A stretch of DNA of 64,000 nt from the IMG/VR virus record IMGVR_UViG_3300032308_002092, positions 64,001 to 128,000 of that record. One strand, written 5' to 3'. Both the position numbers and the translations under genes were made by a program. How positions within the stretch are numbered: the stretch's first letter is position 1; every line of letters begins with the position of its first letter. This DNA is from a virus. The notes under the pieces were generated by a model. The model was given only the letters and a program-made list of their open reading frames with translations, did no database searches and was not told the origin of the DNA. Below, one piece after another: positions 24,425-44,162 of the stretch.

Positions 24425-24700
24425 TTACTTGATTTTCCTAAGACGCAACCTAGTACCTGATGGATTGATTCTCTCGTCTTTCGTTAGCGCACTAGACACA
24501 GCAGAGCTGCAGTACTGTGCAAGCTCTTCCTCGCTAGAGTTCTTCTTCGTTGTCAGCTCGCCTGACTTAAAGACATCAAACAGCTTTTGTGCCACTTGGC
24601 TTTTAAAGCTCTTGTTCTTTAAGAGCTCTTCGTCAATACTAAGCTTGAGCTCTTCTGCTAGCTGGCATACGATTTGATAAATAGCTTCTTTTTGCGACAT
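24425..24700 (-). CDS. Short distant relative of the ribozyme-associated paralog family
   Basis: MSQKEAI...FKSGEL...ELAQYCSSAVSSALTKDERIN aligns by eye with ISGEV...LRSYASSVVANWFNKAPQIN. Confidence 0.55.
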   Translation of the reverse strand: MSQKEAIYQIVCQLAEELKLSIDEELLKNKSFKSQVAQKLFDVFKSGELTTKKNSSEEELAQYCSSAVSSALTKDERINPSGTRLRLRKIK

Positions 24701-24733
24701 GGCAATCTCCTTTGAGGAATGATAAGATCGGAA

Positions 24734-31183: not shown

Positions 31184-31252
31184 ATATCCTCCTACTCAGG
31201 GTTATACCGAGAGGGTGGGGTGGTGTGGGCGCGCCGTAGCAGTGTCAGGTGT

Positions 31253-31312
31253 AGACTCGTCAGTCGCGTATACAACGCGAGACCAAGAGCGTGGCTACTC
31301 TTGGTTTCGTCT
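31253..31312 (-). ncRNA. Type II hammerhead ribozyme HH-a
   Basis: AGAC-GAAA-CCAAGAG(8)CUCUUGG-UC/-UCGCGU(5)ACGCGA-CUGACGA-GUCU; GUC cleavage between 31281 and 31280. Confidence 0.92.
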
Positions 31313-31819
31313 TTAGCCAACCAAAGCCCTAAGGTGCTCTGGGATTGAGGAGAGGTCGAGTTGCTTTGCTTTGTTTTGGCGAGGGGTCTTAGCTGGCTTG
31401 CTAGCTACCATCTCAGCCCTAACATTAGCAATGAAGTTTTTCACTTCAACGATCTTAGTTTCTTCTGCGCCTGAAGCAATAAGATTCTTGAGTACCTCAG
31501 TTGCTTGCTTGATCTGTGGGTTAGTACGGCTACCAGGGTTTTTAGCTTCATACTTGCCGCCGCCGTTGATCTGAGGTGCCTTATTGAACCAGTTAGCTAC
31601 GACGCTAGAAGCGTAAGACCTGAGTGCTTTGTCGTCATCTAGCTTACCAGCCGAGCGCTGTGCCAAGACGACTTCGCCAGAAATGAAGCCTTCAAGCATA
31701 AGGCTAACGATCTCACGACGTTGCTCTTCAGTTACGTACGAAGAAATGGGGGCACTACTATTAAAACTAGAACCAAGGACCTGCTTAGTATACGTTACGA
31801 CCGCTTCATTTTGTTTCAT
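31313..31819 (-). CDS. Ribozyme-flanked paralog A (168 aa, unknown function)
   Basis: Shares RSY..S...NW..K.P..NGG.K...KNPGSR and C-terminal DLS.[IL]PEHL..LVG with 40126 and 43512. Confidence 0.85.
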   Translation of the reverse strand: MKQNEAVVTYTKQVLGSSFNSSAPISSYVTEEQRREIVSLMLEGFISGEVVLAQRSAGKLDDDKALRSYASSVVANWFNKAPQINGGGKYEAKNPGSRTNPQIKQATEVLKNLIASGAEETKIVEVKNFIANVRAEMVASKPAKTPRQNKAKQLDLSSIPEHLRALVG

Positions 31820-31843
31820 GGTAAAACTCCTATATAGAAACAT

Positions 31844-31900
31844 TGACTCATCAGTGCTGGAACCTACCAGCAGATACCCTTGGTATCGGGTATTTCGTCA
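31844..31900 (-). ncRNA. Type II hammerhead ribozyme HH-b
   Basis: UGAC-GAAA-UACCC(8)GGGUA-UC/-UGCUGG(6)CCAGCA-CUGAUGA-GUCA; AUC cleavage between 31873 and 31872. Confidence 0.92.
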
Positions 31901-33936
31901 TTAGTCTATTGCTGCGTAGTCATCTGGGAAGAAGGTTTCTTCTTCCATCTGACGGCTATTGAAGTCTAGCTGCTCATACACATCGTCTTCATAGTCGGAC
32001 AAATAGATATAATCTTGGTTGATTTGCACCGTGTTCACGACCATACCATCGGGCATAACCACGGTTGAATTAGGATCTTGTTGCGAAAGAATCTTAATGA
32101 GTTCTGAAACCAGCATATCAAACCTCCTTTATTTACTTGTGCATATTGATTCGGGAATCATGACCTGAGTGTTAGTCTAGTTCCATCTGGCATCGTCGTA
32201 TAGCTTACGTCGGATGGTAAGGCACTGGTCACTCTAGTGAAGGTTTCTAGTTGCTTGCCTTTACCATCGAACGATCGCGCGCAGCCTGTGCCATCACACA
32301 AGATGAATGAGTCTTGGTTGTAAGTCTGAGCCATGCTCTTCATCAAGTCAAACAACGACCAGCCTATGGTGTTAGGCGAACCACTTACAAGCCAAACATT
32401 CTCCATCTGATCTTTGTAAGATCCTCTGACGTACGTAGTTTTAAACCCATTCATCCTAATGAAGAAGCCTAGCTGCTCATGATCCTGCATATTTCTAATG
32501 TCGTCTTTGTCGCTTTTGTCTGCGGAGATCAGAGCGAAGATAGTATCTAAATCTAGTTTCATGTTAACCCCACTTTCGTTTGTTTGCTAAAACACAAAGT
32601 ACACCAAAGAATAAAGATATTAAGAACTTGAAAAAAGCATACTCAAGATTGCCGTTAATCAAATCAAACCATCCAAATACCTGTAGGAAGATACTTACGA
32701 TAAACAGCGCGATGGCTAAGTTCACTTGCCTCTCCTTACGATCAGGAGGATCGCGGTAATTATTTTCTTAAAAAAGTCAATCATCTTTCTCTCCTTCTTT
32801 TTCTGGGTGAAATTTATCGAGCACCTTAGCGAAGATCATCAGCAGCAGTACTGTTACTGCGAGCCCACCGATTATTGATATCGGTATCGCGACTCCAATA
32901 GCTATAACGTAAAGCAATATACTCATTAGCTAACTTCCTCGCTTTCCTCGTAGATGTACCAGTCATTGGGCTTAAGACTAGCTGTCTTCTGCTCATACTC
33001 GTGTTTGCCGTATGAATACGCGAAGGCTCTGCCGTTCCAAACTATGAACGGAGCTGGGTGATCTTTGTGTGAGATCTTAGCTCCCTTGAGGGCCTCAATC
33101 AATGCTTCTTCTAGAGTCATGATCAGCTCCAATCGTTAGGGTCTTTGTTTTTGCCCTTGACTTCTTCGTAGAAGATAATACAAAGCAATCCCACCATGAA
33201 GATGCCACCAAAGAAACCCGCTATAGAAATTGCAGCCATGAATCCTGTTAATGCTGAGTCCACGATATTACTCTCCTAGTATTTGTTGCTCTATTTGTTG
33301 CGTCATATATTTGTCTAACGTGAACTGAATAACATGGTTGTGAACATCTTTTACCTTTAGATAAACCGAATGAGGTGTTAGATCGCCTCTTGAATTCAGA
33401 TAGCAGTTCGCTACTAGCTTAAAGGAATAAGGGGTTTTTGGATGTTTTATGGTCTTAGATACTGTGGTGTACGACTTACCTTTTCGCTTAGCACACTCTT
33501 TAACAGCATAATGGTAGTGAGAGATAAGGGCGTCTAGGGTAAATTCGCTGCCTTCTACTGGACCCAGGCTTAGGTCTATGATTGTTCTATGCTCTCCAGT
33601 AACCGTAAATAAACACATGTTGCTAACCCCTACTCGTTATCGTTGAATAGTATTGGTTTCGGATACTCACTTAAGGTCTTGTGTCTCTGAGTAGAGAAGG
33701 TGTGACATAGAGTCCATCACCACAAGAGTACTCTGCTTGCCATACTTAGACACCATGTCTGCCTTGAGGGAGCGAAACTCAGCTCTACACTTCTCTCGCT
33801 CTGCGACTTCTCTGAAGTATTGTCTACCCTCGGCGGCCTCGTAGTAAGAGAGATCAGCTATGGATACTATAAATTTTTTGATTAGCTCGCAATTGTAGTT
33901 CATGCAACCTCCAATAAGATATTGGATCGGGATCAC
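31901..33936 (-). CDS. Run of small hypothetical early genes (31901..32116, 32158..32562, 32926..33132, 33268..33618, 33667..~33903 and several <60-aa TM peptides)
   Basis: Co-oriented ORFs, several preceded by the CCGA motif and SD. Confidence 0.55.
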
Positions 33937-34163
33937 CTATCGGATGGGTTGCCGTGGCCGTTATCGCATAAGTCTTCTCCACAGCCAGCGCCACCGCCAC
34001 ACCCATCACCATAACCGTTGCCATCGCCATAGCCATCACCACTAGGGCTGCAATTACTTAAACCACAGCCATAACCATCGCCGCTTTTCTTAATATAGTT
34101 GTCACCATTGGGTCTACCGTAATGGTAACCGTAGCTAAAACCATCTATTTCTAGAGATTCCAC
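33933..34163 (-). CDS. Gly/Asp-rich family member 10
   Basis: LEIDGFS ... PSDR. Confidence 0.82.
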   Translation of the reverse strand: MESLEIDGFSYGYHYGRPNGDNYIKKSGDGYGCGLSNCSPSGDGYGDGNGYGDGCGGGAGCGEDLCDNGHGNPSDR

Positions 34164-34169
34164 GATAGC

Positions 34170-34388
34170 TCACCAATCAGATGGGTAGTGATCGAACCGA
34201 TCTTCGGTGCCACTACCGCAACCATCACCATACTCATCGCTATGTCCATCACCTCTGCCATAACCGTCGCCGTCAGCAGTGCCACCACTTAAACCCCAAC
34301 CATCACCATCGCTGTAAGTATGACTATCGCCGTTGGCCATGCCGTAACGATCGCCGTAACCAAAAGCATCTATTTTTAGAGATTTCAT
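34170..34388 (-). CDS. Gly/Asp-rich family member 11
   Basis: LKIDAFG ... PSDW. Confidence 0.85.
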   Translation of the reverse strand: MKSLKIDAFGYGDRYGMANGDSHTYSDGDGWGLSGGTADGDGYGRGDGHSDEYGDGCGSGTEDRFDHYPSDW

Positions 34389-34408
34389 GGTTTATTCTCA
34401 GTCTGAGA

Positions 34409-34744
34409 TTAAAGCCACTTATTCAAGTCAGCTTTCATCACAAAGATATCCTTACCGAAGATCGTACCAGCTTCGTTTAGCACAGTCTCAGCCTGAGGAC
34501 CTTCGACGCACAGCTGGCCGAGACCCTTGGTCGTACCCCATCGGTGGATGTTGTAGGCGTTGTCAAGCCTGATTCTCTCGCTGGAGAGGCGAGTAACGAA
34601 GCCGATGAATACCCAACCGCGATCCATGACTGCGATGACTAGATCGCCGTTCTCATAGTCAAGCTTAGGCTGAGGTGCGCCTCGCAAAGACTCCTCAACC
34701 TGACTGTTGATTACATAATTACCGAATAACTTACTCTTAGCCAT
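34409..34744 (-). CDS. DUF6948-like phage protein
   Basis: VMDRGWVFIG...LDNAYNIHRWGTTKGLGQL..EGP, recognised from memory; own CCGATA motif and AAGGAGG SD. Confidence 0.7.
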   Translation of the reverse strand: MAKSKLFGNYVINSQVEESLRGAPQPKLDYENGDLVIAVMDRGWVFIGFVTRLSSERIRLDNAYNIHRWGTTKGLGQLCVEGPQAETVLNEAGTIFGKDIFVMKADLNKWL

Positions 34745-34881
34745 AATAAACCTCCTTTGTTTCTGTCTATATTTATATCGGAAATGATACTCTGTGGACC
34801 GTTACAATCCTCTTTCGCTGTTATACATCAGAAATACAATCGCAACAGTGAAACCAAGTATAAGTAGCGCAAATACACTCA

Positions 34882-35097
34882 TTAAGAAATCTCGCTTGCT
34901 TCTACGTATTGGCTGAAGATTTCTGGGTATCTTTGTACGTAACCGTTGTCTTCTAGGAAGTAGTACAGAGCTACACCAGGTGGTACTTCGTCATCGAAGT
35001 TGCTCCGCCAAGCGTAGTCTTCGAAGTCACTCGTAGTTAATCCCGTGACCTTAACACACAGCTTATCTACTTTGTTCATGTAAGACTTGAAAGACAT
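34882..35097 (-). CDS. Hypothetical protein
   Basis: 71-aa ORF. Confidence 0.55.
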   Translation of the reverse strand: MSFKSYMNKVDKLCVKVTGLTTSDFEDYAWRSNFDDEVPPGVALYYFLEDNGYVQRYPEIFSQYVEASEIS

Positions 35098-35155
35098 ACA
35101 AACCCCTTATTGAAGACACCCCATCGTTGGGATATATAATCTGGTTTCGGGATTC

Positions 35156-35350
35156 TCACCAGTCTGATAGATCATCGTAGCCATAACAGTCACCGTAGCT
35201 CTCTCCATCACCATTTCCATAGCCGTATCCGCTACCACTACCGTCGTATTCTGTAATGATGATGATATTAGGGCCTTCAGAGCCGCTGTCGCCGTCACCG
35301 TTATAGTGGCCGTCACCACAACCCCAGCCATCTATTTCTAGCTTGTCCAT
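35156..35350 (-). CDS. Gly/Asp-rich family member 12
   Basis: LEIDGWG ... LSDW. Confidence 0.82.
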   Translation of the reverse strand: MDKLEIDGWGCGDGHYNGDGDSGSEGPNIIIITEYDGSGSGYGYGNGDGESYGDCYGYDDLSDW

Positions 35351-35356
35351 TGCTCT

Positions 35357-35596
35357 TCACTTATCTGACGGGCCGTGATGGCCCTTGCCACTGCCATCTC
35401 CAACAACGAGATCTTGCCCCAGACAATTTAGATCATAACCATAGCCATCGCCATTAGGGAGGCTGTCTCCGTAGCCACAGCCATACCTCTCTCCATCGTA
35501 GCCATAACCATAGTTCCCATGGACACCACTGCCATCGCCGCAGAAGTAACCGTGAAAGCGTCCATAACCTAAGCCGTCTATGTCTAGCTTGTCCAT
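35357..35596 (-). CDS. Gly/Asp-rich family member 13
   Basis: LDIDGLG ... PSDK. Confidence 0.85.
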   Translation of the reverse strand: MDKLDIDGLGYGRFHGYFCGDGSGVHGNYGYGYDGERYGCGYGDSLPNGDGYGYDLNCLGQDLVVGDGSGKGHHGPSDK

Positions 35597-35599
35597 GGT

Positions 35600-35896
35600 T
35601 TATGCTTTACGCTTCTTCTTTTGGCCGTCTTTGATGGCCTGAACCTCTGCTTGGTCAAGCGGGACACCGTGGCGGTACCAGCTATCACCCCACACCGCGC
35701 CGTCTTCCCAGTAGGTTATAGCAGGGCTACCCTCACGATGTAACCTACCTTGGCAATACCAATACTCGGTGTCTACCTTGCCGTCTTCGCTATAGTAGAC
35801 AATGGCAGGGCCATCCACACGATGTGGAACACCCTCCTCCAGGTATCGCTCGGACTCTACCTTACCGTTTTCGTAGTGTTTCTTAACGCACTCCAT
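35600..35896 (-). CDS. MORN-variant / HRxDGPA repeat protein
   Basis: YENGKVESERY..G.PHRVDGPAIVYY and LHREGSPAITYW repeats. Confidence 0.75.
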   Translation of the reverse strand: MECVKKHYENGKVESERYLEEGVPHRVDGPAIVYYSEDGKVDTEYWYCQGRLHREGSPAITYWEDGAVWGDSWYRHGVPLDQAEVQAIKDGQKKKRKA

Positions 35897-35908
35897 AAAT
35901 CTCCTTGA

Positions 35909-36148
35909 TTACCAATCTGAAGGCATGTCATGATCATCACCTGAACCCCAGCCGTTGCCGTGGTTGTAGGACGTATCACCATAGCCAACACCATCGCGAT
36001 AAATTGGGTGATAGCCACGACCATGGAGATCACTGCCACCATTGCCCCAGCCATCCCCACTCGCCATGGAGTATTCACCTTCTCCCTCGCCGTTACCATC
36101 CCACCAACAGTCTGGTGAGCCGTCGCCATCTATGTCTAGCTTTTCCAT
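35909..36148 (-). CDS. Gly/Asp-rich family member 14
   Basis: LDIDGDG ... PSDW. Confidence 0.85.
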   Translation of the reverse strand: MEKLDIDGDGSPDCWWDGNGEGEGEYSMASGDGWGNGGSDLHGRGYHPIYRDGVGYGDTSYNHGNGWGSGDDHDMPSDW

Positions 36149-36155
36149 AAGTTAG

Positions 36156-36422
36156 TTACCAATCTGAGGGTTCTAAATCTTCCCCATCACCAGCACCATC
36201 TCCACCGGTGTCGCCACCAGAACCGTCGCAATAACCATCACCGCCGAGGGTGGTATAACCGCTGCCTCTTCCGTCGCCGGTTCCAGTGCCGCAGTCGCCG
36301 TCGCCATAGCGATCGTCTGGTATAGAGGGGCTATAGCAACCTATACCGCCGTCCCCATTAGGGGACGTTCTGTCTACACCACAACCAAATCCATCCACAG
36401 CGAGCTTGCTTTCTAATATCAC
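36156..36422 (-). CDS. Gly/Asp-rich family member 15
   Basis: LAVDGFG ... PSDW. Confidence 0.82.
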   Translation of the reverse strand: MILESKLAVDGFGCGVDRTSPNGDGGIGCYSPSIPDDRYGDGDCGTGTGDGRGSGYTTLGGDGYCDGSGGDTGGDGAGDGEDLEPSDW

Positions 36423-36434
36423 TTAATATGTCCT

Positions 36435-36668
36435 CTACCAGTCAGAAGGGTCACCCTCAGGCTGTATCTCATGGAATTGGATGAATGTCATAGAATCGGA
36501 TTTTGTGAGTTCGTGTTCGCCGTAGCCATAGCCGTCACCATTTGGTTTGGTTCTGCCTATGAAGCTATCTGGCGTTTTTACGCCCTCTCCAAAGCCGTCG
36601 CCATGTATCCTACCGTATTGACCATAGCCGTAGCCAACTCCGTCTACGATCGTCTCGCCTATCTTCAT
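36435..36668 (-). CDS. Gly/Asp-rich family member 16
   Basis: TIVDGVG ... GDPSDW. Confidence 0.82.
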   Translation of the reverse strand: MKIGETIVDGVGYGYGQYGRIHGDGFGEGVKTPDSFIGRTKPNGDGYGYGEHELTKSDSMTFIQFHEIQPEGDPSDW

Positions 36669-37134
36669 GGGTCCTCATATCCATTAAAGCTGCCCGCCAA
36701 GAAAAGCCGCCCGCCAAGAACGCTATTGAGCTTAACGTAGTTAAACTCTTCTTTTGAGGTTCGCTTAAGTGTTTCAAGCATAAATAGCTTCTTGGCTTCC
36801 TCTGATTCCATCACTTTGATACCATCTACCCAGATGCTGCATTCCGGACTACATATCTCTTCATACCCAGCCTTATATCCAGCAGCGGACACCTCTTCTA
36901 AAGTGAGAGGCTGGTCTTTGATGGCCTCATACATTTCTCGCACCTGTTCATACGACACTTCTGTTTTGCGATGAGGACCCCCAGTTTGTTGAGAGCCGTT
37001 CTCACTACCTCCTTGACCATTATGGGAAACCATTAGGCCCATCACTATAAACGCCGCCGCCGCACCCATTACTTACCCTCCTCTTTCTTACACAACACCT
37101 ATCTTCATAGGTCCTCATATCCATTAAAGCTGCC
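36658..37134. repeat. 37-bp direct repeat (36658..36694 and 37098..37134) flanking ORF 36665..37069
   Basis: cctatcttcatRggtcctcatatccattaaagctgcc, one mismatch. Confidence 0.9.
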
Positions 37135-37405
37135 ACCATTTACGTGGGGTGCGTGGGACACTTGCATGAGGATGCGGCTTTTCTATCTCAAGGTGCCGAA
37201 TGGCTACAACATCAAATAGCTCTATCCCATTCGTGTTGCGACCCTCTTTATCAACGTAAACACAGGAAGCAACCCCCGGAGCAAACAGCACCATTAAATA
37301 AAACGCCGGTGACCAATCAGCGCGTTCGTTGAATTCAACAAACGAACCCACTAGTCCGTTTCTAAGTGTGATCTCGTCCCAAGCCTTTAGTTTTGTAATA
37401 TCCAT
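36665..37405 (-). CDS. Two hypothetical proteins (36665..37069 with N-terminal hydrophobic segment; 37124..37405)
   Basis: GGAGG SDs. Confidence 0.6.
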
Positions 37406-37445
37406 AATGGCCTCCTTTTTATAGTAATTTTAATACACTAATCAT

Positions 37446-37755
37446 TCCCAAACTTCAATCTCACCAGTCAGCTCAACTACCTGAACCGGCTCACCTTAGG
37501 TATCTCAAATACAGAAACATCCTCGTCCCTTAGATTTTCAGTCTTGCCTATGGGAATTCTTATCTCATACAAAACCCCATCGCTACCTGTCACGCGAGTG
37601 TATCCACGTTCTTTCAAGCTTGAGAGCTGCTCCCTCGTGAGGTCCTCAAAGATTTCTATGGGCACAGGTCCTTTGTCTGTCAAGAACCCTTCTTCAATTA
37701 ACCGGTCAATTACTTTAGACATATTACAAACTACTCCCAAACTTCAATCTCACCA
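37446..37755. repeat. 21-bp direct repeat (37446..37466 and 37735..37755) flanking ORF 37477..~37722
   Basis: tcccaaacttcaatctcacca exact in both copies. Confidence 0.85.
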
Positions 37756-37951
37756 CTCCGAAGGGGTCTCCCTTAGTATCCCTGTCTCTTGTACCTGCAA
37801 AATGGGCACCGAACAACAGTCTAACATTACCTTGAGAACCGAAGTCCTCATCAAAGACTGGCAGGCTTCGTCCCATGCCTCACACTCCAACTACATACAG
37901 AACGAAGATCCCTATCAGGATGGCAGCCCAAACCCCAATTAGTATCTCCAT
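37750..37951 (-). pseudogene. Possible decayed 17th Gly/Asp-family gene
   Basis: Ends CCT TCG GAG TGG TGA (PSEW*), preceded by GGA GAC one base out of frame; no intact frame. Confidence 0.35.
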
Positions 37952-37964
37952 AGTCCCTATCCCC

Positions 37965-38440
37965 TTAAAGCAGGCTCAGTATGAAGCCTAGCACCACCAA
38001 GAACACCCAAAGCACCACAGAGTACAAAACAACAGTCAAGTACCATAGCCACAAAGCGGTCATCCCGACTATCTCTCTGAAGCCGGGGATAGACATCAAA
38101 CCGCATACTGCAGCTATAGCCAACACCAGTACGACCACCCTTGCCAGTAAGCGCCGCATAACCCCTCCCCATATCGTGATTCATATACCTTCGGAATATA
38201 ACTCAAGGGTCTGATGCCCACTTCCCACCCCTACTTAAACTTACAGCTCAAACCAGCTTTATTCAGGCCGTTATATCTATAGCAAATCACTTCGCTATTC
38301 TCTAGTCTGTACACACCAAAACCAACCGCCTTAGCTTCGCTAAAGCCATACTCACCGTCAACACCTCCATCAACGTTAGGCTCAGATACCCTAAAAGTAC
38401 ATCCGCTCAATACAATCAATCCAACCACTAGCACCTTCAT
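37965..38440 (-). CDS. Small membrane protein (37965..38159) and small lipoprotein (38231..38440, LSGC)
   Basis: Hydrophobic segments / lipobox; GGAGG SDs. Confidence 0.6.
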
Positions 38441-39470
38441 AAACCCCTCCCCACAATTACCCTACAACTATCCATTATCAATTCGGAATCCCATACCTTA
38501 CCTTCCCCAAACCCTGGGTGGAAGATATAGTAACCGCCGTAACTAACTTATAAACCCCTAAAATAACCTCTTATAACAACCTATACCCACCTATACCCAG
38601 TTATAACTACCTACTAATCCCTATACCCTCAAATACCCTAATCCCCTACGTAACTACTACTATTAGATACACTTAAGTGCCAAAACCTACCGTAACTAAC
38701 ACGTACGTATCACCTTAACCCCATACCATTCCCAACCAACCACCTATACCAGTTAGTAGCACGAAAGGGATAGGGAGTGGACTGGTAGAGTTATAGTGAT
38801 AATGATCCTCACCATTACTATAGGAAAGACATAAAAACTATAGTGATTTAACTAGCCTAGGGCGAGCCTATAGGCAGGTTGTTTCCGCCCACAACTATCC
38901 CTACTCTCGCAACAACATCTCTCACTTGTGGCCACGCCGCGGTAACCTATAGGGTTACAAATCACCACGGTTTTGCCCACCTATAGGTTTACAGGTCGGG
39001 TATCCTGCTCCCTCCTACCCTATCCCTACAGATACCTCCCGGGTGGTTTGCGTGTTGTCCTAGGGGTAAATCGGGTGTCGAGGAAATCATTAGGCTTTTT
39101 GGTAGTTGGGTTGGGAATGGTGCTTTCCCCTAGGGGTAAAATGAGATAGGTGGGTGGCTTTGTTGATATTGCTAGAGATTTTAGTTTCGGGATGATAGGA
39201 GTGAGAGAAGTCCTAGGGAGTTTTGCTCGTTTTAGGGCTTCGGGTGTGGGGCGTAGCAGTGTCAGGTGGTTTGGTGGGGTTGTTGGGCTACGGGGTGGGA
39301 TAATGATATCAGTGAGTTACGGGTGTTTTGGTGGCGCGAGTTGGTGCGCTTAGGGCTGGGGGTTTATATACACTTTTATTTTGTGGTCTTGAGTTGTAGT
39401 TGGGAGAGTAGGATAAGTAGGGTGCGAATTCAAGTTGTTTGGGGGTGGCTATGATAAGCCCGTAGCCCAA
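38441..39470. other. Largest non-coding region, with C-rich to G-rich skew switch; candidate replication origin
   Basis: C/A-rich 38441-38760, G/T-rich 39060-39460; repeated cctata, cgtaacta and cctaggggtaaa. Confidence 0.5.
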
Positions 39471-40012
39471 TCAGACTATATACTCTTCGTCTAGTGGCTC
39501 ATCGTATAGGTGAGCTATGGAGTGCCATGGTCCTGGGACTGTGAAGAGGTCTAAGTTGCCAGAGCGTATAGCGTGAGCCTTAGCCATAGCTTCGTCCATG
39601 TCAGAGTGAGAGGAAACTACCCACGTCACTAGGTTGTGGACTTCGGAATCCACCTTCACGATAGTGTCGAAAGTAGAGTGGTCGTACATCACGAAGTACC
39701 TAATAGGTTGCATAACATAGTCTCCTTACTTAATGGACAAGTTAATGAAGATGAGAGTCATTATCAACAAGAATATAGCCGCTGTGCCTGGATCCATCAC
39801 TCTGTCTCTTCCACGGTTATGGTGTAGGACTTGTCGTACTGGTCCTTCACTATGATGGTGCGCTTAGGTGACCTAAAGCTACCGTCTTCGTTTAAGTCCA
39901 TCTTTATCTCTACGTTCCTGAGCTTTATCTCAGTCGCCTTAGGTATGGCCGCAGTGATCACATGAGTGATATAGTCGCAGTATGCTAATCTCAACCCGCT
40001 TGACTTAAACAT
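39471..40012 (-). CDS. Small hypothetical proteins (39471..39713; 39797..40012)
   Basis: AAGGAG SDs. Confidence 0.6.
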
Positions 40013-40050
40013 AGTCGTTCCTCCTTATATAGGGGATGGTATCGGAAACC

Positions 40051-40113
40051 GGACTCATCAGCATGGCTATCAGCCATGGACCTAGGATCTCGAGCGAGTC
40101 CTAGGTTTCGTCC
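40051..40113 (-). ncRNA. Type II hammerhead ribozyme HH-c
   Basis: GGAC-GAAA-CCUAGGA...UCCUAGG-UC/-CAUGGCU(3)AGCCAUG-CUGAUGA-GUCC; GUC cleavage between 40079 and 40078. Confidence 0.92.
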
Positions 40114-40125
40114 TCGGTTACGGAC

Positions 40126-40572
40126 TTATCCCACCAGGGATCTCAAGTGCTCGGGTAGTGCGGAGAGGTCCACAGTCTTGGCAGCAGACTTAGGCTGTGG
40201 GCGGTTAGCTTCAATGAACGCTTCGAGCTCAGCTGTAACTTCAGATCCCTTAGCGATCAGAGCCGCTTTGAGAGCTAGAGCTTGCTTGAACTCTGGGCTA
40301 CCAGATCGGCTACCAGGGTTCTTGACTTCGTGCTTGACCCCACCGTTGAGGGCAGGTGACTTACGGAGCCAGTTGCTGAGCAGACCTGAAGCGTAGCTTC
40401 GCGCCTTAGCTTCGCTGTACTCCTTGCTCAAGCTGATCTCTCCGTTCATGAGTCCCGCTACGAGCATACCGATTGCTTCCTTGCGTTGCTCACTAGTTAG
40501 GGTGACTGCTTCCGCAGTTACTCCAACGATTGACTGTACGATCTCTACGACTGCCTTTGATTGTGACTTCAT
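40126..40572 (-). CDS. Ribozyme-flanked paralog B (148 aa)
   Basis: RSYASGLLSNWLRKSPALNGGVKHEVKNPGSR; VDLSALPEHLRSLVG. Confidence 0.85.
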   Translation of the reverse strand: MKSQSKAVVEIVQSIVGVTAEAVTLTSEQRKEAIGMLVAGLMNGEISLSKEYSEAKARSYASGLLSNWLRKSPALNGGVKHEVKNPGSRSGSPEFKQALALKAALIAKGSEVTAELEAFIEANRPQPKSAAKTVDLSALPEHLRSLVG

Positions 40573-40590
40573 ATGTAACACTCCTTAATT

Positions 40591-40647
40591 AGACTCATCA
40601 GTGCCAGAACCTACTGGCAGATACCCTTGCTATCGGGTATTTCGTCT
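40591..40647 (-). ncRNA. Type II hammerhead ribozyme HH-d
   Basis: AGAC-GAAA-UACCC(8)GGGUA-UC/-UGCCAG(6)CUGGCA-CUGAUGA-GUCU; AUC cleavage between 40620 and 40619. Confidence 0.92.
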
Positions 40648-40651
40648 TAAG

Positions 40652-40801
40652 TTACCGACAGTAGTGATCGGCGTAGTTGCAGTAGAAGTCATAGACTTCG
40701 TCGTCAGTCCACGAGTCACAAGAGTAGTCTACGTCATCGTTTCCCGCTGCGATCATCTGAGCGAGGATGATGTTCACCGTAGTGCGAAGCGAACCTCTCA
40801 T
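40652..40801 (-). CDS. Unlisted 49-aa acidic peptide (MRGSLRTTVN...DHYCR)
   Basis: AAGGAG SD and CCGATA motif upstream; stop 4 nt before HH-d. Confidence 0.6.
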   Translation of the reverse strand: MRGSLRTTVNIILAQMIAAGNDDVDYSCDSWTDDEVYDFYCNYADHYCR

Positions 40802-40948
40802 ATGAAGCACTCCTTGGTTAATCAACCTTGGTTGGTTGATAGTTATATATGGTATCGGGAAACTGGGGCTGCATCGGATCGTGGGGCCGAGGTGTGGGTT
40901 CGGGTGCTGGGCGTAGCAGTGTCGGGCTTCACGCAGACACCCTCGGTA

Positions 40949-42139
40949 TCACTCCAGACCCTTGCAGGAGCTAGCGTCGTTGCTCTCGTTGGCCTGACAA
41001 GCCACGTACTTCTCGCTGCTTTCCTTGGAGTTAGCCACCGAGATCTCACCTACTACGTTGATGGAGGTGTTGACTACAACTCCGCCCACGATAGCGTACA
41101 CACAGTACAAGACCACTAGTTCGATGCCCATTATAATGCCCCTTATAAACCTTAAAGCCCACTTAAACTGCCATTCTAATAGCTAGAATGGTATTCTAAA
41201 ATCTAGTATGTTATACTTTGCCCTTACCCCGGCAAGTTCTGCTTGTAGTACAAGTCACCCCAGTCGATGTAGAAGTCCTCGACCTTAGCGTGATCCCAAG
41301 CGTCGGACCACAGCTTGATATCCTCGTAGCTATCCATGCTCATCTCCCTGCCAGTCACCAACTTAAAGGCATCGTTCATGAACATATTAGCGTCTACGTA
41401 GTCATGCGAAGCGCACTCATGCTTATGGTTGTGCTTGTTAGCTTCGCATATATCAACCATAGTGGCTAGACCAAGCTCAGCCATCAGTAACTCGGAGAAC
41501 TTTTCTGCTATCTGTTCGTGTAGCTCTACTTCGAAATCCATCGTTCACCCCGGTAAGTTGTCTAGTATAAAGTTAAGCTCTTCTACTACTTCGTCGGAAA
41601 CAGGTTGATCTAGTGCCTCATCAGGTACATCTGGGTAGTATTCCAGCTTGAATTCGTCCCAAGCGAACTGCATTAACTGTCTAAGCGTAAGTTCGTTCAT
41701 TGTCCACCTCTTTCTTCTAAGGCTTGATACACTCGCTTCAGTAGCTCTGTGGGTTCGGTATAGAAATCATCCTTATCTAACTGCACCATATCCAGGTTTA
41801 TCAGCGCCTGACTGAACCTCATATCGGGATAGGTCCTCAAGTAGGTCTCTAGTATCCGTAGTAGCTCCAAGTTAGCATGTAGTCGGACGCTCGTTGGTTG
41901 ACTCATAATAACCTCCTAGTTACATATAGATATAGATTCGGATACGACTATCAGAACCACTCACCCTTTCTTACAATCACCACTCTACTCGCTGTATTGA
42001 CTATCATCGCTCTTCTCCTTCTGCCATCGGAGAAGTATCTCATAGCCTCTTGTAAAGCAGAGAATGAGTGTATAGTCATGAAAGACCGTGCATCAGTTGA
42101 GCCGTGCCAAACCTGAACTTGATACATAATAAACTCCAA
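40949..42139 (-). CDS. Small hypothetical early genes (40949..41131, 41224..41541, 41697..41906, 41951..42139)
   Basis: Co-oriented short ORFs. Confidence 0.5.
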
Positions 42140-42254
42140 TGTGTAAGAGAACTTTGTTATTCTCTTATTAATAATATATAGTTACGGGAATTAAATTCCC
42201 CTGGGCGTAGCAGTGTCAGATAGTGGTATAATACCCTTAGGTTAAGGAGAACAC

Positions 42255-42731
42255 ATGGAAAAGCTAATCAAGCATAGCAACGGGCAGTGGACACTAGTTA
42301 AGGCCAAGGACACTAGTAAGCACGGCAACTTCGGTGGTGGTAACTCCTTTGACGGAGGAGACCAGTATGTCCCCTCTAAAGAGGGTATTGCAGCAAACGC
42401 GGCTAGAGCAGCGGAGCAGAAACGCCTAGAAGCAGAAGCGAGCGCAGTATCGGCTGCACACAAAGATGTAGCCGACAGAGGCGAAGTTCGCCGACGCACC
42501 GAGCCGCCGAAAACCGTAGAAGATCACCCACTACACGGCGAGTTAGTTAATCACTTCAAGAACAAGCATGGGTTGGACCATCACGCTGCGTTTGCTGCGG
42601 CTACTCATGTCATGACTTCGGGCCTCGGCGAAAAGACTCATGAAAGTGACTCAGATAAAGCAGCTACTGGTTCTGGAGCAGCCGAGGCCAAGAAGATCCT
42701 GGCTGGTAAGGTTAAGACCAAGATCTCTTAG
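42255..42731 (+). CDS. Isolated late-type gene, possibly head-internal protein
   Basis: GGTATAAT and AAGGAG upstream; N-terminal MEKLIKHSNGQWTLVKA; Ala/Lys/His-rich. Confidence 0.6.
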   Translation: MEKLIKHSNGQWTLVKAKDTSKHGNFGGGNSFDGGDQYVPSKEGIAANAARAAEQKRLEAEASAVSAAHKDVADRGEVRRRTEPPKTVEDHPLHGELVNHFKNKHGLDHHAAFAAATHVMTSGLGEKTHESDSDKAATGSGAAEAKKILAGKVKTKIS

Positions 42732-42736
42732 TCGTC

Positions 42737-43003
42737 TTATATAAGACCTTGTTCACTCAGTTGCTTCATCAGTGAATCATCATTCTTAGACCCAAAGACT
42801 CTCACTACATCCTCATAATCACATAGTTCATCGGGGTCGTCGTGACATACGAACGCTAGTCCTTCGACTGTCTTCCACACTGAGAACTCATATATGCAGT
42901 GAACTCCTGTCTCTACGTAACCATCAGGTTCAGTGATTGAGCCATCGAACATCTTCCCCGCTTCTAACTCTGCAACAAGTTGATCGACTGTGAACTTACT
43001 CAT
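42737..43003 (-). CDS. Acidic 88-aa protein, paralog of 43080..43346
   Basis: TGVH.IY.F.VW.T.EGL.F.C..DPDE shared. Confidence 0.8.
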   Translation of the reverse strand: MSKFTVDQLVAELEAGKMFDGSITEPDGYVETGVHCIYEFSVWKTVEGLAFVCHDDPDELCDYEDVVRVFGSKNDDSLMKQLSEQGLI

Positions 43004-43020
43004 AGTGACTCCTTAAAGTT

Positions 43021-43080
43021 AGACTCATCAGTGTGACTCTTAGTCACAGACTATCTTCGTTTCGGAAGATAGTTTCGTCT
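43021..43080 (-). ncRNA. Type II hammerhead ribozyme HH-e
   Basis: AGAC-GAAA-CUAUCUUC(6)GAAGAUAG-UC/-UGUGACU(3)AGUCACA-CUGAUGA-GUCU; GUC cleavage between 43049 and 43048. Confidence 0.92.
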
Positions 43081-43346
43081 TATGCGAGACCTACTGCACT
43101 CAGCTGCTGATCAAGAGTGTCGTCTTCCTTATCCTCCTCGAAGAACCGCTTGACATCGTCGTAAGTTAGTATCTCATCGGGGTCTTCAGTGCATATGAAC
43201 CTCAAACCTTCGTCAGTGTCCCACACCTCGAAGTCGTATATGGAGTGAACACCGGTGCTCACGCCTCCGTGTGACAGGAACTCACCTGCAGTTAGTCTAC
43301 CATCGGCGATCGCTTCTTCTAACTCTCTGACTGTGATCTTACTCAT
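43080..43346 (-). CDS. Acidic 88-aa protein, paralog of 42737..43003
   Basis: Shared motif with 42737..43003; GAGGAG SD. Confidence 0.8.
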   Translation of the reverse strand: MSKITVRELEEAIADGRLTAGEFLSHGGVSTGVHSIYDFEVWDTDEGLRFICTEDPDEILTYDDVKRFFEEDKEDDTLDQQLSAVGLA

Positions 43347-43511
43347 GACTTCTCCTCATGTTGTTCACACATTAATAGAATCGGAAAACACACTAATAAA
43401 TATTTAAGTTTTTCAACTCATTTATTTATTAATAATATATAGTTTCGGAAACTATATCCCTGGGCGTAGCAGTGTCAGTGGGTACGGGCACCACGCCCGC
43501 ACCCAACTCAC

Positions 43512-43961
43512 TTAGCCAACCAACTTCTGGAGGTGCTCGGGAAGCGCTGAGATATCCACGGTCTTCTCGGTCTTCACCGGAGCGTTGGCTGCGATGAACA
43601 TCAGGAGCCCAGTAGGAATCTCCTTGCCTTGCTCAGCCAAGTACTTCTTAAGCGCGATCGCTTGCTTGTACTCATTGCTCCCACTTCGTGAGCCTGGGTT
43701 CTTAGCTACGTACTTCACTCCGCCATTCAACTCGGGCGACTTACGTACCCAGTTGTCCAGCAGTCCCACCGAGTAACTCCTCATCTTCTCGGGAGTGTCG
43801 TGCTTAGCCCGAGCACCCGCGCTCATATCAATCTCACCATCAACCAAGCCTTGTGTGATCAGAGTCAAGCACTCTTCTTTCTGCTCCTTGGTCAACTTAA
43901 CTCCGGGAGTAAATCCCTCGATCCCACTCACGATCGCTACGACTGCATCTACTTGCTTCAT
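43512..43961 (-). CDS. Ribozyme-preceded paralog C (149 aa)
   Basis: RSYSVGLLDNWVRKSPELNGGVKYVAKNPGSR; VDISALPEHLQKLVG. Confidence 0.85.
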   Translation of the reverse strand: MKQVDAVVAIVSGIEGFTPGVKLTKEQKEECLTLITQGLVDGEIDMSAGARAKHDTPEKMRSYSVGLLDNWVRKSPELNGGVKYVAKNPGSRSGSNEYKQAIALKKYLAEQGKEIPTGLLMFIAANAPVKTEKTVDISALPEHLQKLVG

Positions 43962-43979
43962 GTAACACTCCTTAAAGTT

Positions 43980-44036
43980 AGACTCATCAGTGCAACCACT
44001 TAGTTGCAGATACCCTTGCTATCGGGTATTTCGTCC
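43980..44036 (-). ncRNA. Type II hammerhead ribozyme HH-f
   Basis: GGAC-GAAA-UACCC(8)GGGUA-UC/-UGCAAC(6)GUUGCA-CUGAUGA-GUCU; AUC cleavage between 44009 and 44008. Confidence 0.92.
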
Positions 44037-44162
44037 TCACTTCTTCTTGAACACTAGTTCCTTAATCACATCGGATACAGTCAGAACTGCGAATCCCCCG
44101 ACTAGAACAACCATCAACATCCACGAGAGTTGCCAGAGATAGATCAGGTAAATCAATTCCAT
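44037..44162 (-). CDS. Unlisted 41-aa membrane peptide
   Basis: AAGGAGG SD; MELIYLIYLWQLSWMLMVVLVGGF...; TGA abuts HH-f. Confidence 0.55.
   Translation of the reverse strand: MELIYLIYLWQLSWMLMVVLVGGFAVLTVSDVIKELVFKKK

Follow-up and report, generated by a model that had tools for sequence, protein, structure and literature searches.

Clustered hammerhead ribozymes of prophages cut in vitro and in E. coli, and they were proposed to process long transcripts into single-gene mRNAs, with circular products also considered; the identities of the hammerhead-flanked genes were not constant (Perreault et al. 2011, PLoS Comput Biol; PMC3088659). The locus described here, centered on a gene referred to as paralog B in an uncultured phage, resembles those prophages in that co-oriented, intergenic type II hammerheads bracket one same-strand gene and, as read from its sequence, is a further example of an arrangement known in phages since 2011. 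It differs from them in three respects: (i) one protein family without a Pfam assignment, represented by three paralogs in this genome, has retained its ribozymes across an entire clade; (ii) a terminator-like hairpin alternates with the 3' ribozyme; and (iii) a loop I pseudoknot is not detectable. Both the lineage-wide tie of hammerheads to a single protein family and the natural interchange of a 3' ribozyme with a hairpin are what this locus adds.

A second precedent comprises the ribozyme-associated phage genes that led to the twister-sister, pistol, and hatchet ribozymes (Weinberg et al. 2015, in the accounts given by PMC4604425 and PMC6765202). The idea that certain phage genes recur beside self-cleaving ribozymes applies equally to paralog B; compared with the genes mentioned in those accounts, the paralog B family has no annotated domain and its ribozyme link is confined to one lineage. 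The purpose of bacterial and phage hammerheads is still an open question (PMC6765202), and the locus leaves that picture unchanged but constitutes a clean test case, with the three paralogs in one genome representing three variants of the hammerhead layout. The two ribozymes flanking paralog B, HH-d on the 5' side and HH-c on the 3' side, display the same topology and the same core as the Rfam family Hammerhead_II (RF02276), but differ from it in having a longer stem III and no evident counterpart of the 3'-tail pseudoknot seen in the Rfam consensus.

Viroid and retrozyme monomers, as well as engineered Tornado RNAs, are also released by flanking self-cleaving ribozymes, with ends that can be joined by RtcB or tRNA ligase; these highly self-paired RNAs rely on cognate or identical tandem-repeat ribozymes or on an engineered end-joining stem. 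The paralog B locus shares with them an RNA segment predicted to be freed by flanking ribozymes with ligatable ends, whereas its ribozymes have unrelated stems, the ends can form 4 bp, and the segment is an ordinary coding sequence.

The two hammerheads and the predicted unit between them

Coordinates refer to the window, the whole 64,000-nt stretch of DNA that was analyzed, which belongs to a 151,207-bp (151 kb) virus record from an uncultured phage, 91% complete. The viral loci and contigs compared with this genome are designated by L numbers such as L003, L068 to L186 being from IMG/VR. The features under discussion are collected in Table 1; according to the ORF list, the genes surrounding the 541-nt unit lie on the minus strand.

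Table 1. Positions of the ribozymes, genes, and intergenic elements in the window
Feature	Position	Strand	Remarks
HH-d, 5' type II hammerhead	40591..40647	-	Full core; stems I and III closed, 4-bp stem II open
HH-c, 3' type II hammerhead	40051..40113	-	Full core; GUC site, 7-bp stem I, 7+3-bp stem III
Paralog B, 148 aa	40126..40572	-	Phage protein family without Pfam, PHROG, NCBIfam, or PADLOC match
Predicted excised unit, 541 nt	40619..40079	-	Derived from both predicted cut sites; hairpin at each end
47-nt leader of the predicted cut mRNA	40573..40619	-	Stem I hairpin at the extreme 5' end, then CUGAUGAGUCU, then AAGGAG (40586-40581)
Upstream ORF, 49 aa	40652..40801	-	Stop codon 4 nt ahead of HH-d
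Promoter-like element TTTCCGATACCAT..TATATA	40025..40048	-	Directly past HH-c, before the next gene (ATG 40012)
TYCCGAWM(N2-4)ATAT, examples	40036-40048, 40849-40861, 43440-43452, 34772-34784	-	Genome-wide motif scan
TGACACTGCTACGCC motif	31233-31247, 39250-39264, 40910-40924, 42204-42218, 43463-43477	-	99 sites in the fetched loci and this genome
Six hammerheads	31900-31844, 31312-31253, 40647-40591, 40113-40051, 43080-43021, 44036-43980	-	Descriptor scan
Paralog A unit	31253..31900	-	Hammerhead 31900-31844, ORF 31822-31313, hammerhead 31312-31253
Paralog C block	43021..44036	-	Hammerhead 44036-43980, ORF 43961-43512, GC hairpin (about 43479-43505) and TGACACTGCTACGCC, 88-aa gene, hammerhead 43080-43021

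In the 5' to 3' direction, HH-d comprises AGAC, GAAA, stem III (UACCC/GGGUA, 8-nt loop), UC at the predicted cut, stem I (UGCCAG/CUGGCA, 6-nt loop), CUGAUGA, and GUCU, and HH-c comprises GGAC, GAAA, stem III (CCUAGGA/UCCUAGG), UC at the predicted cut, stem I (CAUGGCU-GAU-AGCCAUG), CUGAUGA, and GUCC. Both display the type II core (CUGANGA, GAAA, and an NUH triplet with A15.1-U16.1), represented in HH-d by CUGAUGA, GAAA, an AUC site, and G10.1-C11.1, together with type II stems (stem II of 4 bp, stem I of 6-7 bp, stem III of 5-10 bp) and G-C pairs beside the core. Cleavage is predicted after C40620 in HH-d, between 40620 and 40619, and after C40079 in HH-c, between 40079 and 40078. These positions match exactly the 541-nt unit at 40079-40619 proposed in the first-pass annotation, which had also correctly placed the paralog B ORF between HH-d and HH-c, here recognized as two complete type II hammerheads; the junction that it gave, AUCCUAGGUC followed by UGCCAGUAGG, agrees with the two predicted ends of the unit.

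The Rfam Hammerhead_II model assigns HH-d 29.4 bits (E 0.013), below a gathering score of 37 that is the curators' cut-off and not a structural requirement, and HH-c is not reported by Rfam in the window; Rfam is insensitive to the hammerhead variety in this genome. A covariance model built from 18 ribozymes of this group, R1, scores HH-d at 68.7 bits and HH-c at 61.1 bits, both belonging to its training set, and recovers the training ribozymes; it also detects ten more, scoring 46-72 bits, among related contigs, two of them in first-set loci and eight in further contigs. The 30 sequences of the first search, 22 of them distinct, were aligned by fitting to the model, a procedure that favors pairing; in this alignment 97.8% of the cells are paired and 14 of the 16 pairs show changes on both sides, against 0 of 500 shuffles as high and 22-36% paired in slid controls. 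A loop I pseudoknot, a contact typical of published type II hammerheads, was sought with (i) the 3' tail, where the longest helix averages 3.88 bp versus 3.86 bp for shuffled tails; (ii) the 5' flank, with 3.88 versus 3.78 when shuffled; and (iii) loop III, where pairing is no better than in shuffles. Because this pseudoknot does not exceed the shuffled controls, the cleavage speed at cellular Mg2+ is uncertain.

Of the 541 nt of the unit, the ORF with its stop codon accounts for 447, and the leader and the trailer for 47 each. The ribosome-binding site, with the Shine-Dalgarno sequence AAGGAG, is located 8 nt past the ribozyme, ahead of the paralog B ATG at 40572. The minimum-energy fold of the unit (z-score -0.46) contains both terminal hairpins, stem I in the leader at the start and stem III at the end, and shows no end-to-end helix, the ends sharing only 4 bp.

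Paralog B and its protein family

The homology of paralog B to the doubly flanked paralog A (31313-31822), asserted in the first-pass annotation, was confirmed at 39% identity (E 4e-34), and paralog B is 56% identical to a third copy, paralog C, at 43512-43961. At E ≤ 0.001 the family numbers 833 cluster representatives, whose lengths all fall around 150-170 aa; no longer fused forms were found, and several paralogs per phage are the norm. A conserved segment, NW.RK..LNGG.K..KNPGSR, is basic in character. Pfam, PHROG, NCBIfam, and PADLOC gave no usable match to the family, a PDB profile search gave none, and a phage collection gave no match by protein or DNA. The AlphaFold model of paralog B is all helical (pLDDT 89); searches with this model by Foldseek (PDB, BFVD), VIA-align wide, and ESM Atlas returned only unnamed viral clusters, the best VIA-align wide Z of 5.2 being on a helical model.

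Two further members of the family deserve mention. A short relative in the window (24428-24733, minus strand) covers profile positions 2-84 with E 2.7e-09 and has no hammerhead nearby, and in a 51-kb viral contig (L003, 1590-2645) a nine-tRNA array, including one tRNA-Sec-like by score, lies just upstream of a family gene.

Six hammerheads in one genome

A descriptor scan of the complete 151,207-bp record disclosed six hammerheads, all intergenic, all on the coding strand, and all within 12.8 kb (31253 to 44036) on the minus strand like the genes; by chance, 100 simulated genomes averaged 0.18 such elements and contained 2 at most. In paralogs A, B, and C a hammerhead ends just ahead of the ribosome-binding site: these 5' ribozymes start 0-6 nt past the upstream stop codon and end 5-19 nt before the Shine-Dalgarno sequence. 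Paralogs A and B have a second hammerhead that begins at most 12 nt from the stop codon, and paralog C has a GC hairpin behind the gene instead, with the next ribozyme one gene further along. The 3' ribozymes of A and B have no stem sequence in common, as had been stated from first inspection, and their cores also differ (CUGACGA in A versus CUGAUGA in B).

One stem III, UACCCGAUAGCAAGGGUA, is common to the three 5' hammerheads of this genome (31900-31844, 40647-40591, and 44036-43980), the first of them deviating by one loop change, and the 5' hammerheads of the paralog B orthologs (L052, 1393-1455; L058, 922-984) display another stem III and the same stem I. This pattern suggests gene conversion between ribozyme copies, or an exchange of ribozyme halves. 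Separately, an ORF of 32-41 aa encoding a hydrophobic, membrane-like peptide lies directly before the 5' hammerhead of several family genes (window 44037-44162; L057, 702-800; L061, 3800-3913; L065, about 2637-2760).

Association of the ribozymes with the family among relatives

In a maximum-likelihood tree of 61 family proteins, ribozyme-linked genes occupy 15 of the 16 rows of one clade and two of the three rows of a separate clade, the remaining 44 rows being without ribozyme. The 15 linked genes of the main clade include seven flanked on both sides, six with a 5' ribozyme only, and two with a 3' ribozyme only; in the three-row clade, L015 and L051 carry a 5' ribozyme, and the 24-kb L015 contig contains a single hammerhead, directly before the family gene. 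A 5' ribozyme is therefore present in 15 of the 17 linked genes, both ribozymes in 7, and a single ribozyme in 10.

The paralog B orthologs of L052/L053/L054 and L058 are doubly flanked, with 75-80% identity in L052 and L058. Their 5' ribozyme keeps stem I and has a different stem III; their 3' ribozyme has a different stem I and a stem III that is kept in L052 and diverged in L058. Since L052 and L058 are doubly flanked though one stem of each ribozyme has been replaced, the arrangement appears older than a recent copy, as the first-pass annotation had argued. The neighboring genes differ: in L052 and L058 the upstream gene is a 64-aa ORF unrelated to the 49-aa ORF of the window, with the ribozyme kept, and in L052 the 71-aa downstream gene is missing, with both ribozymes still accompanying the family gene. 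The family genes of L060, which encodes a paralog C ortholog, and of the more diverged L066 and L067 likewise have a ribozyme on both sides, the stems differing from case to case, the ribozyme of L060 that corresponds to 43080-43021 lying about 40 nt past the stop codon of the ortholog. Family members in L055, L057, L061, and L065 have only a 5' or only a 3' ribozyme. In two of these loci (L055, 9929-12695; L065, 1873-4671), one paralog carries the 5' ribozyme only and a second, about 2.2 kb downstream, the 3' ribozyme only; the ribozyme pair therefore brackets a multi-gene block that starts and ends with family members.

Outside this group, hammerheads are entirely absent from two complete phage genomes (166-177 kb) in which the family is present. 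Rfam at the gathering score found no ribozyme in the window and 17 viral loci, and at E ≤ 0.5 in 40 further loci it gave one weak Hammerhead_3 match, overlapping an already-found type II site; no other Rfam ribozyme class was found beside the ribozyme-less relatives in these 17 and 40 loci. Type II hammerheads with this stem II (GAC/GUC) and this core occur in at least 119 viral contigs, none of which encodes a family member. Among the matches listed, 17 of 80 contigs contain two or three hammerheads 220-3400 nt apart, and predicted gene-sized, ribozyme-bounded units are frequent in viral contigs among these matches.

The proposal that double flanking is under selection for this protein family thus stands in part. 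The link itself is kept in one clade (15 of 16 genes), but double flanking is not a property of the family as such: it is found in only 7 of the 17 linked genes, the 3' place being otherwise taken by a hairpin. Likewise, family genes are associated with ribozymes in 17 of the 61 tree rows and are free of them in 44, which speaks against flanking as a family-wide trait, as do the same-type ribozyme contigs without the family. The link between gene and ribozyme is real and old within one phage lineage; it is no rule for either partner, because 44 relatives have no ribozyme and at least 119 contigs have the ribozyme and no family member.

Hairpins and promoter-like elements at the 3' position

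The five clade genes without a 3' hammerhead that were read directly each have a GC-rich hairpin in its place, followed by the same intergenic motif; a more distant relative, L063, has a terminator hairpin and U tract there, and L065 displays the same hairpins. Distant relatives display a promoter-like sequence upstream, a hairpin downstream, and no ribozymes. The hairpin and motif behind paralog C were also considered as another known ribozyme class, a candidate rejected with no Rfam match at E ≤ 10.

The 3' ribozymes mostly have promoter-like elements behind them, and the element located directly past HH-c is found behind the orthologous ribozymes of L052 and L058. On the coding strand, about 25 start codons are preceded, at a distance of about 25-40 nt, by the motif TYCCGAWM(N2-4)ATAT; this motif has 32 matches on the minus strand versus 10 on the plus strand and is a candidate phage promoter of unfamiliar type. 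A search for a T7-like RNA polymerase, suggested by the resemblance of TGACACT to the SP6 promoter, gave no match, and the control search likewise gave none.

Proposed function of the flanking ribozymes

The two hammerheads probably act in cis to set the ends of an mRNA, releasing paralog B as a 541-nt, hairpin-capped, single-gene message. This reading is based on the intact cores, the covarying stems, the position, strand, and conservation of the ribozymes, and the alternation of 3' ribozyme and hairpin; actual cleavage, the transcript start, and any stabilizing effect are inferred. The transcript would start upstream, probably at the promoter-like elements near 40860-40925, pass through the 49-aa ORF and paralog B, and continue toward the next gene. 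Each ribozyme would fold during synthesis and cut itself, yielding an upstream fragment that ends in stem III with a 2',3'-cyclic phosphate and a downstream fragment that begins with a 5'-hydroxyl followed by stem I. [quoted passage not shown] Paralog B would be freed with a hairpin at each end, and its stability and dosage would be uncoupled from those of its neighbors, the expectation of a stabilizing effect drawing on what is generally known about 5' hairpins and about 5'-end-dependent decay.

The 3' ribozyme would perform the same job as the terminator-like hairpin behind other family members. Given that this hairpin swaps with the 3' ribozyme and that promoter-like elements mostly follow that ribozyme, the ribozymes seem to sit where transcript ends are made, and ribozyme-defined mRNA ends are the best reading of the alternation. 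Because sister genes show this swap, small synthetic constructs could test directly whether the ribozyme acts as an mRNA end-former. The idea that cleavage unmasks the ribosome-binding site was considered and rejected: its predicted accessibility is 0.54 before and 0.56 after the cut, and since this is unchanged no gain in translation is evident.

Three other explanations were weighed against the setting of mRNA ends. The ribozymes could represent a timing or dosage switch that keeps paralog B linked to its neighbors or splits it from them, with folding controlled by Mg2+, by a phage factor, or by ribosomes translating the upstream ORF, which stops right beside the ribozyme; we regard such regulated cleavage as unlikely. 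At each of the three 5' ribozymes stem II begins 0-6 nt past the upstream stop, a distance at which its 5' strand would be covered by a ribosome terminating there, and the failure to detect a stabilizing pseudoknot would suit a slower, tunable ribozyme. Nevertheless, no aptamer-like or alternative structure was found, the consensus cores point to constitutive cutting, and cutting leaves the predicted accessibility of the ribosome-binding site as it was. Regulation was also raised for phage hammerheads by Perreault et al. 2011 (PMC3088659).

Still less likely, the flanking would reflect the history of gene cassettes more than any benefit to paralog B, with hammerhead halves traveling with the cassettes or serving as recombination linkers, as neutral or selfish modules. 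Stems are reassorted among ribozymes: in L052 (385-443) and L057 (1798-1854) the stem I of HH-c is combined with other stem IIIs and followed by a different gene, the three 5' ribozymes of the genome share one stem III where the paralog B orthologs carry another, and the same ribozyme type flanks many unrelated genes in the at least 119 viral contigs. On the other hand, intact cores and compensatory stem changes over deep divergence indicate selection on cleavage itself, and the placement relative to stop codons and ribosome-binding sites is precise.

The least probable explanation, to which we give very little credence, is a circular mRNA, in which the 5'-OH and 2',3'-cyclic phosphate ends of the 541-nt unit would be joined after both cuts. 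The joining could fall to RtcB of the host or to the hammerhead reaction running backward, within a hybrid ribozyme that takes its stem III from HH-c and its stem I from HH-d and has GGAC/GUCU as stem II. Such a circle would be exonuclease-proof and translatable, with CCUAGGUC followed by UGCCAGUAGG at the expected junction; if real, here and in the doubly flanked relatives, it would constitute a natural circular, translatable phage mRNA, and the flanked protein family would be a cargo needing the circular form. Established hammerhead chemistry provides ends suited to RtcB, and seven family genes, with differing ribozyme stems, are flanked on both sides. The 4-bp pairing of the ends put forward in the first-pass annotation is indeed available, between GGAC 40113-40110 and GUCU 40594-40591, and the hybrid core would be complete, with the same stem II as the native ribozyme 44036-43980. 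However, this match arises because a stem II of the form xGAC/GUCx is common to nearly all ribozymes of the group, and in paralog A it amounts to only 3 bp. Hammerhead equilibria, moreover, favor cleavage. The features of circular RNAs, namely cognate ribozymes, an end-joining helix, or high self-pairing, are replaced here by unrelated stems, no end helix beyond 4 bp, and a z-score of -0.46, and the minimum-energy fold keeps the ends apart. The 91%-complete genome contains no phage RtcB (PF01139) and no Rnl2-type ligase (PF09414), and 10 of the 17 ribozyme-linked family genes have only one ribozyme. Exact searches of viral contigs disclosed neither a junction of the circle type, with the HH-c stem III running into the HH-d stem I, nor an empty-site chimera, in which the HH-d stem III meets the HH-c stem I. 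Circular or spliced products of clustered hammerheads were also sought by Perreault et al. 2011 and none was found (PMC3088659).

A conserved intergenic motif

The 15-nt motif TGACACTGCTACGCC is almost invariant between genes in phages whose family proteins are only 30-40% identical. It was not met as a described motif in the searchable literature, where matches occur only in unrelated papers. The motif contains a hexamer resembling the -35 element of sigma-70 promoters and is usually located behind a GC hairpin or terminator T tract, 15-55 nt before the TYCCGAWM..ATAT element. In L060 (about 1132-1142) and L066 (about 2380-2393) it is inverted beside the 3' hammerhead and points into the family gene, where it might drive an antisense transcript.
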